Sequence record: PZ495249.1
Length of the DNA stretch: 64,000 bases
Direction: 5' to 3' (one strand)
DNA from: a phage
Shown: in pieces, positions 950 through 19,614 of the stretch
How positions within the stretch are numbered: position 1 is the first letter of the stretch
Layout of the letters: each line of letters begins with the position of its first letter
Program-made: the position numbers and the translations under genes
Notes under the pieces: generated by a model
Databases searched by the model: none
Seen by the model: only the letters and a program-made list of their open reading frames with translations
What the model was told of the DNA's origin: nothing

Positions 950-1312
950 TTATTCTTCGCTCTCTTCGGCTTCCAGGTCTGCGATCTCTTCCTCTAAGCT
1001 ATCGCGGCGCTCTTCCAGATCTTCCAGGTCGCTCGTTAACTCCTGATAGGCTGGCACTTCGTCAAGATCCATTGTCCCTTCATAGTCGCTTTTACCGCAA
1101 CGGTACGCCGCCGGATCAAGATTTTTCAGAGCATAGGACGGGCTAAACAATGATCCGCAAACGTCTATGTCTTCGTAGCAGTCATCGAGCATTGCATCAT
1201 ATTCCTCTTCGCTTGCTTCATAAGAGAAGTTGCGGATCTGACGCTCAGTTTCTGCAATATCACGGATCACACTTGCCAGTTCTGCGCGTTTCATTTCGAG
1301 GATAGTAGTCAT
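950..1312 (-). CDS. acidic early protein (120 aa, Glu/Asp-rich C-terminus)
   Basis: track ORF; consensus promoter at about 1380..1408. Confidence 0.6.
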   Translation of the reverse strand: MTTILEMKRAELASVIRDIAETERQIRNFSYEASEEEYDAMLDDCYEDIDVCGSLFSPSYALKNLDPAAYRCGKSDYEGTMDLDEVPAYQELTSDLEDLEERRDSLEEEIADLEAEESEE

Positions 1313-15158: not shown

Positions 15159-15183
15159 AAGGGGCGTAAGCCCCTTATTTTAT
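15159..15183 (+). terminator. rho-independent terminator
   Basis: GGGGC-GTAA-GCCCC stem plus T-run. Confidence 0.55.
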
Positions 15184-15651: not shown

Positions 15652-16722
15652 ATGAAAGTAGGCTTAATTTTCGGTAAATTTGCACCACTGACAGCAGGAC
15701 ATGTCAACTTCATCCGTATGGCAGTAGAGTCGGGCATTGATCGTCTGTATTTGTTCCTGTCTTTCGACCAGAAGTTCAACGACACTCAAACTCCGTGGAT
15801 GCAGAAGCGCCTTGGCCTCACACAACGTTTGTGGGATCTCAAGTCTCTTATCGAAGACTCTGGACTCACTCGCAAAGTGATCGTAGACTACGTGGACGAG
15901 TCCAACATTCCTGGCTACCCAGAAGGTGGTAAGGCGTATGCTGAGTTGATTCGTGCTAAGATCCCCGAAGGAGAGGTGTTGACACACGCATTCTCTTCTG
16001 AGCCGGAGTATACTGCCTACTTCTCTGAGTATTTCCCAGAGGTGGAGCATGTTGTGCTGGATGCAGAGCGCAGCGGAGTAGATATTTCTGCTACACGCAT
16101 CCGTACCAACCTGCGGGACAACTTCGAGTATCTTTCCGAGCAAGCTAAACCTCGCTTTGTCAAGCGTGTGGCTATTATCGGTGTAGAAAGCACTGGTAAA
16201 TCCACGATGACCGAGCGTTTAGCTCACCACTACGCAACAACGTCTACGCCTGAGATCGGGCGGGACATTTGCGAAGAGTTATTCTGTGGTAGTGAATTCC
16301 TAATGGATCGTGAAGCGTATCTCAAAGTTGCTATGGCACACCGTATGGAAGAATATATGCACTCCAACGAGGCACACGTTGTCCACATCTCGGACACCAC
16401 CAACTTGATCACGCACTTCTCCGGTATTTGTTCAGGCAAACTGTATCTGAACGACCATATGTTCAGGGCTTTATCTCGTGAAGAAGCTAACACCTTCTAT
16501 GACCTGGTGTTGTTCCTGTCTCCAGAAGTCGAGTGGGTAGAAGATCCTCTGCGACTGCAAAATACGCCACGGAAACGACTTGACACACATAATTTCCTTG
16601 ATATGATGGTGACTGAACATTATGTCGGTCGTGTTCCTGTTGTTCACATCACGGGTACGGACTATGAAGATCGTATCAACCAGGCTATTAAAGCCATTGA
16701 TAAACTTTTAGCGGAGGGTTGA
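15652..16722 (+). CDS. nadR: NadR-like bifunctional NMN adenylyltransferase / ribosylnicotinamide kinase (no HTH domain)
   Basis: N-terminal nucleotidyltransferase motif GKFAPLTAGH; C-terminal P-loop GVESTGKST; AAAGGAG RBS. Confidence 0.8.
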   Translation: MKVGLIFGKFAPLTAGHVNFIRMAVESGIDRLYLFLSFDQKFNDTQTPWMQKRLGLTQRLWDLKSLIEDSGLTRKVIVDYVDESNIPGYPEGGKAYAELIRAKIPEGEVLTHAFSSEPEYTAYFSEYFPEVEHVVLDAERSGVDISATRIRTNLRDNFEYLSEQAKPRFVKRVAIIGVESTGKSTMTERLAHHYATTSTPEIGRDICEELFCGSEFLMDREAYLKVAMAHRMEEYMHSNEAHVVHISDTTNLITHFSGICSGKLYLNDHMFRALSREEANTFYDLVLFLSPEVEWVEDPLRLQNTPRKRLDTHNFLDMMVTEHYVGRVPVVHITGTDYEDRINQAIKAIDKLLAEG

Positions 16723-16907: not shown

Positions 16908-17093
16908 ATGAAAGTTGGAGATGTGTTGCGTTGTACTTACTCCGTGGACAGTGATTTCACGGTAGGAAATCTCTATGAGATCGTGTCTTTTGATAAGGAT
17001 GGTGATCCTATTTTGAGGGATAACGACGATTACACTGGCGGTATCGGTGTTGTCATGAATGGCACTCGTTGGCGTTTCGAGGAGGTTGAATGA
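16908..17093 (+). CDS. small protein (61 aa), tandem paralog A
   Basis: track ORF; shares MK.GD.(L/V)RCT..(S/D)D....G.LY pattern with next gene. Confidence 0.5.
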   Translation: MKVGDVLRCTYSVDSDFTVGNLYEIVSFDKDGDPILRDNDDYTGGIGVVMNGTRWRFEEVE

Positions 17094-17281
17094 AAATCGG
17101 TGATCGTGTAAGATGTACTCGCAGCGATGACTCTGAATTGTATTCGGTGGATACTCTCTATGTGATAGAAGGATTTGGATACGGTGGAATGTTGCTACGT
17201 GATGATAAGGGTGGTCTGGATCGCATTCCTATCCCGATGAAAGGTGCATTCTGGGATTTCGAACCAGTTTTAGAAAACTAA
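17090..17281 (+). CDS. small protein (63 aa), tandem paralog B
   Basis: track ORF; ATGA overlap with paralog A. Confidence 0.5.
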   Translation: MKIGDRVRCTRSDDSELYSVDTLYVIEGFGYGGMLLRDDKGGLDRIPIPMKGAFWDFEPVLEN

Positions 17282-17305
17282 TTTAATCCTAAAGAGGAGA
17301 TGAAC

Positions 17306-17998
17306 ATGAACTTATACGTTAAATCCACCTGGACTGACTTCTACGGCTGGAAACCTTTGGAATATCTTTGGTTGGTTATCTGTACTGCCAGTATCGGTGC
17401 GATCTCTATTGCGATGAACAGTACGCTGGTTGAGTTTATCTCCTCAGTAACAGGGATTGTAGGTGCAATCCTTGTGGCAAAGGGTAAAATTTCAAGCTAC
17501 TGGTGGGGTGTCATTGCTACGGCACTCTACGCATGGATCTCATACAAATACCAACTCTTCGGTGAAGCGATCATGTACACACTCGTGTTCCTCCCGATGC
17601 AGTTCTGGGGTGCAGTGGTGTGGAGTCGAAAGCTGAATGTAAGTGGAGATCGTGCAGATGTTATCAAGAACTACCTGACGACAAAGCAACGCATTTGGGT
17701 GAGCGTCGGTACGCTGGCAGCAATTGGGCTTTATGCCTTGTTCGTAGCCGAACTGAAAGGTAGTATGCCTGGTTTGGATTCTGCAACTGCAATCCTGTCC
17801 ATTCTGGCTACCACACTTATGATGTACCGTTATGCTGAGCAATGGTATGTTTGGGTGTTGGTTAACATCGTGGCAGTGGTCATGTGGATTCAGGCTACAC
17901 TACACCATGAAGGTGGTGGCGCAGCAGTGCTGGCAATGTGGGTAGCATTCCTGCTTAACTCTCTGTTTGGAGTGTACCAATGGCGCAAGCAAAGTTAG
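17306..17998 (+). CDS. pnuC: PnuC-family nicotinamide riboside transporter
   Basis: multi-helix membrane protein with PnuC-like W/Y-rich pattern; AGAGGAG RBS (alternative ATG at 17300). Confidence 0.8.
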   Translation: MNLYVKSTWTDFYGWKPLEYLWLVICTASIGAISIAMNSTLVEFISSVTGIVGAILVAKGKISSYWWGVIATALYAWISYKYQLFGEAIMYTLVFLPMQFWGAVVWSRKLNVSGDRADVIKNYLTTKQRIWVSVGTLAAIGLYALFVAELKGSMPGLDSATAILSILATTLMMYRYAEQWYVWVLVNIVAVVMWIQATLHHEGGGAAVLAMWVAFLLNSLFGVYQWRKQS

Positions 17999-18137
17999 TG
18001 AAATACTCCCTGTACGGGAGAATGGGTTGGGACAGTGAGCCAGTTTGTCTGCACACAAATCTTAGCGCGGTACAAGTGGCTCTTAAAATAGAACATTACC
18101 TCGCCACCTGGCGACATGTTGAAGTGAGGAGAGAATT

Positions 18138-18494
18138 ATGAGTTATCAAGAAGCATTAGAAGCAACAGGTGCGGAAGTGCTGGACTACCAGGAATTTGGT
18201 AGCTATCAGGGCGAATGGTTGGCTCTTGTACGAGTTAATGGTGTTCTCGGTGTAGCTGAGGGTTCCTACGGCTCCTGCTCTGGTTGTGACTCGTTTGAGG
18301 CAGAATTTGGTTGGGGTGATCGTGATGCTGACGACTACCAGGAGCGACTCGCTGATTTCGGCAATGGTTATCTTCCGGCTTGGTCGTTCAATGAATTAAT
18401 CTCTCGCCTGGAGTACCAGGTGGAGGAGTATTCATGGGGTGATTACGAAGAAATGTTGGAGAAAGTTAAGGCTTGGAAAGAAGCCTACGAGTAA
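18138..18494 (+). CDS. acidic hypothetical protein (118 aa)
   Basis: track ORF; GAGGAGAG RBS; strongly Asp/Glu-rich. Confidence 0.6.
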   Translation: MSYQEALEATGAEVLDYQEFGSYQGEWLALVRVNGVLGVAEGSYGSCSGCDSFEAEFGWGDRDADDYQERLADFGNGYLPAWSFNELISRLEYQVEEYSWGDYEEMLEKVKAWKEAYE

Positions 18495-18503
18495 GGAGGG
18501 ACA

Positions 18504-18881
18504 GTGAAAACAACGATTGAAGTTGATTTAAAATGGTATACAATGCGTCAGAATAACTCTGGTGGTTACTTCATCCGTAATGATGAAGTGAGAGACACGG
18601 TTATCATCCAAGCAACATCACCAGAGGATGCACAGAGTCGTGCTGATCGTATAACCTGTGGAAATGACTCATACTGTGAATGCTGCGGTGAACGTTGGTA
18701 CACTTGGTTTAGCTCAACAGATGGTGAAGAAGTACCAAGTTTGTACGGTACACCAATCGACGAATTAGATCGTGAATCTTTCCGTTATGATGCAGTGTTG
18801 TACTACTTTGACGGAACCAAGCGTTTCTATAAGTTTGGTACTGGGTTCGTACCTTACGAACAACTGGAGGATGATGAATGA
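18504..18881 (+). CDS. hypothetical Cys-containing protein (125 aa), GTG start
   Basis: track ORF; AAGGAGGG 4-5 nt before GTG. Confidence 0.55.
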   Translation: MKTTIEVDLKWYTMRQNNSGGYFIRNDEVRDTVIIQATSPEDAQSRADRITCGNDSYCECCGERWYTWFSSTDGEEVPSLYGTPIDELDRESFRYDAVLYYFDGTKRFYKFGTGFVPYEQLEDDE

Positions 18882-19240
18882 TTAAGTGGCTATTGGTGAT
18901 CGCGCTGTTTTTATCTGCTGGCGCGAATGCGCGGGAAGGATTCAAAGTGGTTGCCAATGGCACTAAATTCTTTACCTGGTATGGTGGTGTAGCTTTATAC
19001 CAAGATGAAGGTAAGGACATTCGTTGTAAGCTGGACAAGAGTACAAAATCAGTGGATCAGTGGGGCGATGCCTTTAAAGCCACTGGCTTTTATTGTGGGA
19101 AGGATCTCTTCATCCTTGTCAAAGAATACATGGACATAGACCGCCAACTCTTCATCACTCTCAATCCTGCGAAATTTGAAGAAAGGAAAACCTACAAAGT
19201 AGATTTGTTCCTGGAGTACAAAGAGGACGAGAAGAAATGA
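18878..19240 (+). CDS. secreted protein with signal peptide (120 aa)
   Basis: track ORF; N-terminus MIKWLLVIALFLSAGANA. Confidence 0.6.
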   Translation: MIKWLLVIALFLSAGANAREGFKVVANGTKFFTWYGGVALYQDEGKDIRCKLDKSTKSVDQWGDAFKATGFYCGKDLFILVKEYMDIDRQLFITLNPAKFEERKTYKVDLFLEYKEDEKK

Positions 19241-19614
19241 AAGTTTTAAATTTTTACCACCTTGGCAAGGTGATTCCAGAGGGAGCGACATACATTGGAC
19301 GTGCAATGCCCCACTTCGGGCTTAAAGCCTCCAAGTTTGCCAACCCTTTTAAGCTACAAGATGGAGAGCCAAGAGGCTCAACAATTCAGCGATACAAAGA
19401 ATGGTTGTGGGAACAGATACGTTCTGGTAAGATTACCCTTGAGGATTTACTGGAATTGGAAGGTCAAAACCTTGTTTGCTTCTGTGCTCCTCAAGCTTGT
19501 CACGGAGATGTGTTGGTTGCAGCCGTACAATGGGCGAGAAGAGAATGGGACAAACGTCACCCGCCATTTAAAGATGACTATTGGGTTTGGGAGGAAAATT
19601 ATGGTAACAGTTAA
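19237..19614 (+). CDS. hypothetical protein (125 aa) with CxC..CHGDVL motif
   Basis: track ORF; ATGA overlap. Confidence 0.6.
   Translation: MKVLNFYHLGKVIPEGATYIGRAMPHFGLKASKFANPFKLQDGEPRGSTIQRYKEWLWEQIRSGKITLEDLLELEGQNLVCFCAPQACHGDVLVAAVQWARREWDKRHPPFKDDYWVWEENYGNS

Follow-up and report, generated by a model that had tools for sequence, protein, structure and literature searches.

An acidic 118-residue protein of a Stephanstirmvirinae-related phage is a member of PHROG 28969, an uncharacterised phage family with an invariant CxxC loop

The gene at 18138..18494 on the + strand of the window, by which we mean the whole 64,000-nucleotide stretch of phage DNA analysed here, encodes a highly acidic protein and is a new member of a catalogued, uncharacterised phage family, PHROG 28969. 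The reading that we rank first, and hold tentatively, is that the product is a dispensable accessory protein that binds a DNA-handling protein and carries a metal-dependent CxxC loop. For annotation, the value of the result lies in a defined family member with the signature G-S-C-x-x-C-D; the analogy to Ocr should be kept out of the annotation.

The start of the acidic gene and the stop of the 53-aa gene upstream share the overlap ATGA. A 125-aa gene with a GTG start codon begins 9 nt after the acidic ORF, which is therefore one unit of a tightly packed + strand block. Its full-length match to PHROG 28969 (E = 4e-47; residues 1-117 against profile positions 1-118 of 120), together with its homologs, rules out a chance ORF, and the 118-aa acidic ORF is a real gene. 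A scan for promoter consensus sequences found none specific to the acidic gene, and promoter-like sites were no commoner than in shuffled sequence. The gene, its parts and its immediate neighbours are as follows.

17980..18141, + strand: upstream 53-aa gene (PHROG 2381), the left boundary of the variable slot
18126..18131, + strand: Shine-Dalgarno sequence GAGGAG, 6 nt 5′ of the ATG, read from the sequence
18138..18494, + strand: coding sequence of the acidic protein, ATG at 18138, stop ending at 18494, 118 aa; from the ORF list and sequence, the PHROG match, homologs and the AlphaFold2 model
18138..18374, + strand: N-terminal core, residues 1-79, holding nearly all invariant or near-invariant columns; many distant homologs align here only
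18270..18290, + strand: invariant loop G45-S46-C47-S48-G49-C50-D51, with G45, S46, C47, C50 and D51 identical in 264 of 264 sequences
18375..18491, + strand: C-terminal half, residues 80-118, variable, acidic and helical, with W100 and an acidic residue at 102 alone well conserved
18504..18881, + strand: downstream DUF7296 gene, 125 aa (Pfam DUF7296, E = 1.9e-29), the second gene of the swappable cassette

The initial annotation had described this ORF as highly acidic, aromatic-rich and of Ocr-like size, and had proposed a DNA mimic. The description is borne out: the coordinates agree, 26 residues are Asp or Glu (22%) and 7 are Lys or Arg, for a net charge of -19, 20 are Phe, Trp or Tyr (17%), and the length compares with ~117 aa for Ocr. 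Calculation of pI and charge had been suggested at the same time as a check. It gave a pI of 4.05, which is as low as the routine can go, since the identical value was returned for several ORFs, and the true pI is ~4 or lower; by negative charge density the protein ranks fourth of the 106 greedy gene calls in the window. Its acidity is nevertheless not unique there, as 35% of the calls have a pI below 5 and 15% of the small proteins have a net charge of -10 or below. The second acidic protein that had been pointed out, at 950..1312, exists as well, on the minus strand (120 aa, net charge -27, 31% Asp/Glu). It has an acidic, coiled-coil-like C-terminus, belongs to the uncharacterised PHROG 9294 and has homologs in 143 phage records, mostly of rV5-like Escherichia phages; a search of solved structures gave no match to it.

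PHROG 28969 is an uncharacterised phage family that has no Pfam entry, and it was the only family returned for the acidic protein by the Pfam, NCBIfam and PHROG scans. A word-indexed search found 443 homologs, and an exhaustive profile search found 963 clusters at 50% identity, almost all from phages. Almost every member is a protein of 110-190 aa that stands alone. The deposited phages with a homolog are confined to Seuratvirus (Seurat, slur01, DruSM1, KurtStettler and others; 64-66% identical) and Stenotrophomonas phage CUB19, and the family counts among its members Seurat gp72, slur01 gp23 and DruSM1 NGRRMQZB_92, the ORF80 of Ojima et al. The Seuratvirus homologs share with the acidic protein their length and the invariant motif, whereas the genomic setting differs, being a Stephanstirmvirinae-like myovirus of ~150 kb here and siphoviruses of 57-61 kb in Seuratvirus. 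At least 128 viral loci in IMG/VR carry the family gene. By comparison, 185,579 representative prokaryotic genomes held 9 loci only (in Stenotrophomonas, Granulicella, Microbacterium, Streptomyces, Saccharibacteria and other candidate-phyla assemblies), tblastn over 72,556 plasmids found no homolog, and a DNA-level search of 5,426 complete E. coli genomes gave no match. On these counts we consider the family to be essentially phage-specific, with a very wide host range that takes in phages of Proteobacteria, Actinobacteria, Acidobacteria and candidate-phyla bacteria.

Domain fusions gave little functional guidance: two members carry a C-terminal DUF6745 and one a zinc-ribbon tail, and nothing beyond DUF6745 and zinc ribbons turned up. 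Full-text literature searches returned nothing on DUF7296, DUF6745, PHROG 28969 or the motif GSCSGCD, and neither the supplements of two accessory-gene screens nor those of the paper describing the EVADES anti-defence database contain the family motif. The libraries of the HIDEN-SEQ paper cover T4, Bas37 and Bas54 only. A 2026 Klebsiella paper on NAD+ anti-defence genes was set aside, as its phage is an unrelated member of the Straboviridae.

In an alignment of 264 sequences, Y3, G21, G25, G45, S46, C47, C50 and D51 are invariant, and A10, G11, F20, Y23, Q24, W27, A29, G42, E56, F74, G75, Y78 and W100 are conserved in at least 90%. E56 is kept in 94%, and the only conserved basic position is 70, which is Lys or Arg in 88%. 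The signature of the family can be written Y-G-S-C-x-x-C-D-a-F-E-a-E-F-G. Most of these positions are not acidic, and the strongest conservation in the alignment is that of the non-acidic G-S-C-x-x-C-D loop and the aromatic core, which charge mimicry would not account for. The residues between the loop cysteines vary (SG, SY, SV, DY, SH). Around one fifth of members have, just after the loop, an insert that supplies four potential ligands (CxxH...CxxC or HxH...CxxC); these inserts and the single zinc-ribbon tail suggest a metal role, and the G45-D51 segment is probably a metal-binding or contact loop.

Acidity is conserved in a different manner. A set of 192 members has a median pI of 4.2 and a median net charge of -15, and in 90% of them the net charge is -10 or below. 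Just five columns (51, 56, 85, 102 and 105) hold an acidic residue in at least 70% of sequences; in many other exposed columns the share of Asp or Glu is 40-65%. Net charge is thus kept while the acidic positions drift, which suggests selection on electrostatics, and we take acidity, as judged from the linear charge distribution and the alignment columns, to be a selected trait of the family.

The structure prediction that the initial annotation had named as a further check went against an Ocr-like protein. AlphaFold2, given an alignment of 61 sequences, returned a model with a pLDDT of 87.4 and a pTM of 0.80 in which the protein is a compact alpha/beta domain, without an Ocr-like helical rod. 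The predicted elements are listed by residue.

Residues 3-9: helix
Residues 13-20: strand
Residues 26-33: strand
Residues 36-43: strand
Residues 44-51: CxxC loop, the part of lowest confidence (block pLDDT 70-73)
Residues 52-56: helix
Residues 67-76: helix
Residues 84-97: helix
Residues 102-117: helix

The predicted fold has no convincing match among solved structures. Foldseek against the PDB gave no match with E below 0.3, only weak echoes of double-stranded-RNA-binding domains and their alpha-beta-beta-beta-alpha topology, and against a viral structure library it found family members only; known DNA mimics were absent from the structure matches listed. Tektin, the sole match in a profile search of PDB sequences, was discarded as a chance hit. 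At the level of sequence families, no Pfam family matched the acidic protein at E up to 1, and a Pfam scan of 61 members returned neither an Ocr nor an ArdA family among its matches; HMA, thioredoxin, glutaredoxin and NifU profiles were likewise missing from the matches at E up to 1. Apart from noise, the same scan gave weak, partial matches to the bacterial SH3_3 profile in 24 of the 61 members (best E = 1.9e-5), the window protein being without one. This likeness appears to be confined to a hairpin of the form W-x-A-x-V...G-x-x-G-W-V, and the model has three strands as opposed to the five-strand barrel of SH3_3. Two further assignments were considered and rejected. A thioredoxin- or glutaredoxin-type fold places its CxxC at the N-terminus of helix 1, which is not the arrangement in the acidic protein; an HMA domain has no profile match in the 61 members, and the CxxC loop follows strand 3, whereas the GMxCxxC loop of HMA domains comes after strand 1.

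The window phage is related to Stephanstirmvirinae, with a genome of ~150 kb. Its nearest relatives among deposited genomes are Klebsiella phages, KP13-26 for one; they are ~82% identical in DNA and cover the region only in part. Alignment with KP13-26 locates the edges of the variable segment: DNA identity is ~95% through the 53-aa gene up to the ATG of the acidic gene, is then lost, and returns to a high level at the end of the DUF7296 gene. The slot enclosed by the 53-aa gene and a 120-aa gene for a signal-peptide-like protein is filled in KP13-26 by two different small genes. Metagenomic phages of ~150 kb have the order NadR ... PnuC, 72-aa gene, acidic gene, DUF7296, 160-aa gene, 120-aa gene, DUF4326, and their acidic protein, in the same position, is 64% identical to that of the window. 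The exchange in KP13-26 and the gene order in the ~150-kb relatives place the acidic gene in an accessory region that varies by recombination, the breakpoints falling at gene boundaries. The DUF7296 protein has an invariant motif of its own, Y-C-E-C-C-G-x-R-W, and its gene adjoins the acidic gene in the 150-kb relatives and in one distant viral contig (L037/L133). As an obligatory partner it was rejected, since the family gene is present at only 1 of 30 DUF7296 loci.

Several side observations concern the surrounding DNA. The segment 17980-19240 as a whole is an accessory-gene hot spot whose interior genes are swapped between related phages; comparison with KP13-26 (L001) and L096 showed that the KP13-26 slot contains a DUF7244 gene and a 93-aa gene, and that the latter aligns at the DNA level with the 3′ part of the 160-aa gene of the metagenomic relative, a gene that the window does not have. 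A NadR-like gene (15652-16722, +) lies 1.4 kb upstream of the acidic gene and a PnuC-like gene (17300-17998, +) 0.2 kb upstream. PnuC-like proteins transport nicotinamide riboside or NMN, and NadR is a nicotinamide-nucleotide adenylyltransferase and ribosylnicotinamide kinase; the pair is kept in KP13-26 and in the 150-kb metagenomic relatives, and this NAD+ salvage pair could offset NAD+-depleting defences. Two adjacent, overlapping small genes (16908-17093 and 17090-17281, both +) are paralogs of 61 and 63 aa, 43% identical (E = 6e-11). One PHROG and some deposited genomes call the 125-aa DUF4326 protein encoded at 19237-19614 (+) 'ribonucleotide reductase NrdA-like', a label that, given the size of the protein, looks like one carried over from a fusion protein. 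Upstream of a 146-aa acidic ORF that precedes NadR is a strong terminator-like hairpin (15159-15176, +; 7 bp stem with 5 G-C pairs and a T-rich tail), and an 11/12 match to the sigma-70 consensus lies at 16580-16607 (+), within the 3′ end of nadR. The hairpin and the promoter-like sequence may mark the transcription unit to which the acidic gene belongs.

Elsewhere in the family, neither clustering of neighbouring genes nor bulk PHROG and Pfam scans revealed a fixed partner gene. The theme that recurs, both at individual loci and in the bulk scans, is DNA metabolism. In temperate settings the gene is found next to recombination functions: in Stenotrophomonas phage CUB19 it immediately precedes recT-yqaJ-ssb, in a Stenotrophomonas prophage it belongs to the early operon, after a CI-like repressor gene and before ERF-YqaJ, and at another locus it lies upstream of RecT and a RecA-dependent nuclease. 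It also accompanies replication genes: a T7-like module has it between DNA polymerase A and a 5′-3′ exonuclease, at a further locus a primase-helicase and polymerase A flank it, and a 234-kb phage carries a tandem pair directly downstream of phage GyrB/GyrA (L021, 4554-4940 and 5001-5366; the same contig as L104). In an enterobacterial prophage it is part of an operon of the order dksA/traR ... excisionase-like ... integrase. The gene that follows it in a 173-kb phage encodes an Acb2/Tad1 hairpin domain (L102, 4350-4598), and in DruSM1 the homolog lies in the same operon as ORF83-85, which follow it by three to five genes (L093, 6241-7315).

DruSM1 provides genetic evidence from published work. 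Ojima et al. made single-ORF deletions of this Seuratvirus and tested their plating against the Gao et al. defence library (pLG001-034) in E. coli DH10B, with 33 systems in DH10B mentioned elsewhere in the same paper (bioRxiv 10.1101/2024.04.14.589459). The library named includes BREX type I, Druantia I, a 'restriction-like' system and others, and it names no classical type I-III restriction-modification system (bioRxiv 10.1101/2024.04.14.589459). We identified NGRRMQZB_92 (66% identical to the acidic protein) as ORF80 from the deletion primers in Table S1, which match its first eight and last seven codons. According to that table an ORF80 deletion mutant was obtained, and its altered-defence column is empty, while ORF83, ORF84 and ORF85 are listed against AVAST type III and qatABCD (bioRxiv 10.1101/2024.04.14.589459). 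Since the mutant was obtained, the DruSM1 homolog is non-essential. DH10B itself lacks hsdRMS, mcr and mrr. With classical type I-III restriction-modification outside the screen, the result weakens an anti-restriction role and does not refute it; redundancy of ORF80 with the 7-deazaguanine DNA modification of the phage is possible. The existing mutant is a ready start for experiments.

These results bear unevenly on what the protein might do. An Ocr- or ArdA-type mimic that occupies the DNA-binding groove of type I restriction-modification enzymes, and of BREX, is in our judgement very unlikely. The size and charge (118 aa, net -19) resemble those of Ocr, family-wide acidity with drifting positions speaks for such a mimic, as do the dispensability of the gene and its place in a swappable accessory slot, and DNA methyltransferase genes occur in some family neighbourhoods; relatives near proven or annotated anti-defence genes, or at the positions of the lambda and T7 nuclease inhibitors, favour the DNA-mimic idea in general. 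The predicted alpha/beta fold is nonetheless not a helical rod and resembles no solved structure convincingly, the Pfam scans found neither any family for the window protein nor Ocr or ArdA among the members, and the gene sits mid-operon among DNA-metabolism genes and not at a genome end where it would be injected first. ArdA-type genes are common on plasmids, whereas the 72,556 plasmids yielded no homolog. In the DruSM1 screen neither BREX I nor the restriction-like system is listed as affected by deletion of the homolog, and conservation peaks in the non-acidic loop and the aromatic core. An anti-defence factor that works without DNA mimicry, for example by inhibiting or triggering an immune protein absent from the tested library, would be consistent with the clustering of the homolog with DruSM1 ORF83-85, with the adjoining Acb2/Tad1-hairpin gene and with the behaviour of the slot. 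We think it distinctly improbable, because no phenotype is listed against the systems tested and because conservation this strong, in phages of distant phyla, points to a universal target as opposed to one sporadic defence system.

The main rival takes the invariant loop as its starting point and proposes a small metal-binding (Zn, Cu or Fe) or thiol-redox protein that acts through a CxxC-D loop between strand and helix, its acidity being incidental. It draws on the complete conservation of G45, S46, C47, C50 and D51, the near-constancy of E56, the lack of any conserved basic residue other than that at 70 and the extra zinc-type ligand sets beside the loop in many members; a resemblance to the (S/T)-C-x-x-C loop of the Atx1/CopZ metallochaperones adds a lead. 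Yet none of the profiles HMA, thioredoxin, glutaredoxin and NifU was among the matches of the 61 members, the fold is of neither the thioredoxin nor the beta-alpha-beta-beta-alpha-beta type, variation between the cysteines is unusual for a tuned redox motif, and no redox or metal-handling gene is consistently nearby, so that we regard this proposal as possible and, on balance, rather unlikely. An accessory subunit of the phage replication or recombination machinery, such as a cofactor of a polymerase, primase-helicase or annealing protein, has a precedent in host thioredoxin, a CxxC protein that serves T7 DNA polymerase. In several phages the gene does come directly after DNA polymerase A or between primase-helicase and polymerase, RecT or ERF with YqaJ adjoin it in temperate phages, and a jumbo phage has the tandem pair after its gyrase genes. 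Among the replication proteins encoded nearby, however, no single phage partner recurs, since they belong to different, non-homologous families; in the lineage of the window and in Seuratvirus the neighbours are small uncharacterised genes, and the DruSM1 deletion is viable. We therefore consider a dedicated subunit of this kind unlikely.

The account that we tentatively prefer is that of an accessory protein that binds a DNA-handling protein. We hypothesize that the acidic gene is expressed along with DNA-metabolism genes and that its product would bind another protein one-to-one, rather than acting as an enzyme. Its surface, diffusely negative, would face a basic protein of host or phage that handles nucleic acids, a form of nucleic-acid mimicry in the broad sense, with a genomic position nearer to those of lambda Gam and T7 gp5.9 than to that of Ocr. 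The G-S-C-x-x-C-D loop would be a metal-dependent element, the metal probably being Zn, and could serve as a structural, dimerisation or contact site. We infer the binding to a protein, the DNA-handling nature of its target and the binding of metal by the cysteines. The bulk charge, the dispensability, the accessory slot, the recombination and replication neighbours and the occasional anti-defence neighbours all fit a decoy acting on a DNA-handling protein. Other features speak against one: the most conserved residues, Gly, Ser, Cys, Gln and aromatics, would be more typical of a ligand or catalytic site, no conserved neighbouring gene offers itself as a partner, and the ORF80 deletion brought no listed change in defence, with BREX type I and the restriction-like system among those assayed. 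Two conserved cysteines are also too few for a zinc site within one chain.

A bolder version, which we regard as doubtful, is that the family forms a new alpha/beta-fold class of host-takeover protein. Its CxxC-D loop, bridged by a metal, would assemble an acidic decoy, and the decoy would block a universal machine for processing DNA ends or organising DNA, such as RecBCD/AddAB-type nucleases, HU or SMC complexes. A decoy with a universal target would explain the spread of the family over phages of such different bacteria. If a host DNA-handling machine were indeed inhibited, the protein would represent a widespread, structurally new and possibly metal-dependent phage nucleic-acid mimic, and a function would be assigned to about a thousand sequence clusters of phage 'dark matter'.

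Among known systems, Ocr (T7 gp0.3) is likewise a small, strongly negative and dispensable phage accessory protein. It is an elongated, all-helical protein that forms a bent, B-DNA-like dimer and counters type I restriction-modification and BREX, whereas the acidic protein has a predicted alpha/beta fold with an invariant CxxC loop, matches Ocr in neither sequence nor profile, is not encoded first at a genome end, and has a DruSM1 homolog whose deletion is without a BREX phenotype. ArdA differs in the missing profile match and in the absence of the acidic family from the 72,556 plasmids. The HMA domains of Atx1/CopZ and the zinc hook of Rad50 are CxxC metal sites. With Atx1/CopZ the acidic protein has in common a local (S/T)-C-x-x-C at a strand-to-helix junction, although the beta-alpha-beta-beta-alpha-beta order of HMA domains differs from that of the model; in the manner of the Rad50 hook, two cysteines per chain would suit a two-coordinate or chain-bridging site. 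Lambda gam and T7 gene 5.9, at comparable genomic positions, encode acidic, non-essential RecBCD inhibitors that mimic DNA. Both inhibitors are helical and are not known to carry a CxxC motif, and neither shows homology or a fold match to the acidic protein; the family gene nevertheless lies, like gam, upstream of annealing-protein and exonuclease genes in temperate phages and, like gene 5.9, between DNA polymerase and 5′-3′ exonuclease in a T7-like module. AcrIIA4, an acidic anti-CRISPR protein that mimics DNA, is built of a helix, three antiparallel strands and then helices, an order of secondary structure that, like its acidity, is similar to that of the protein described here.
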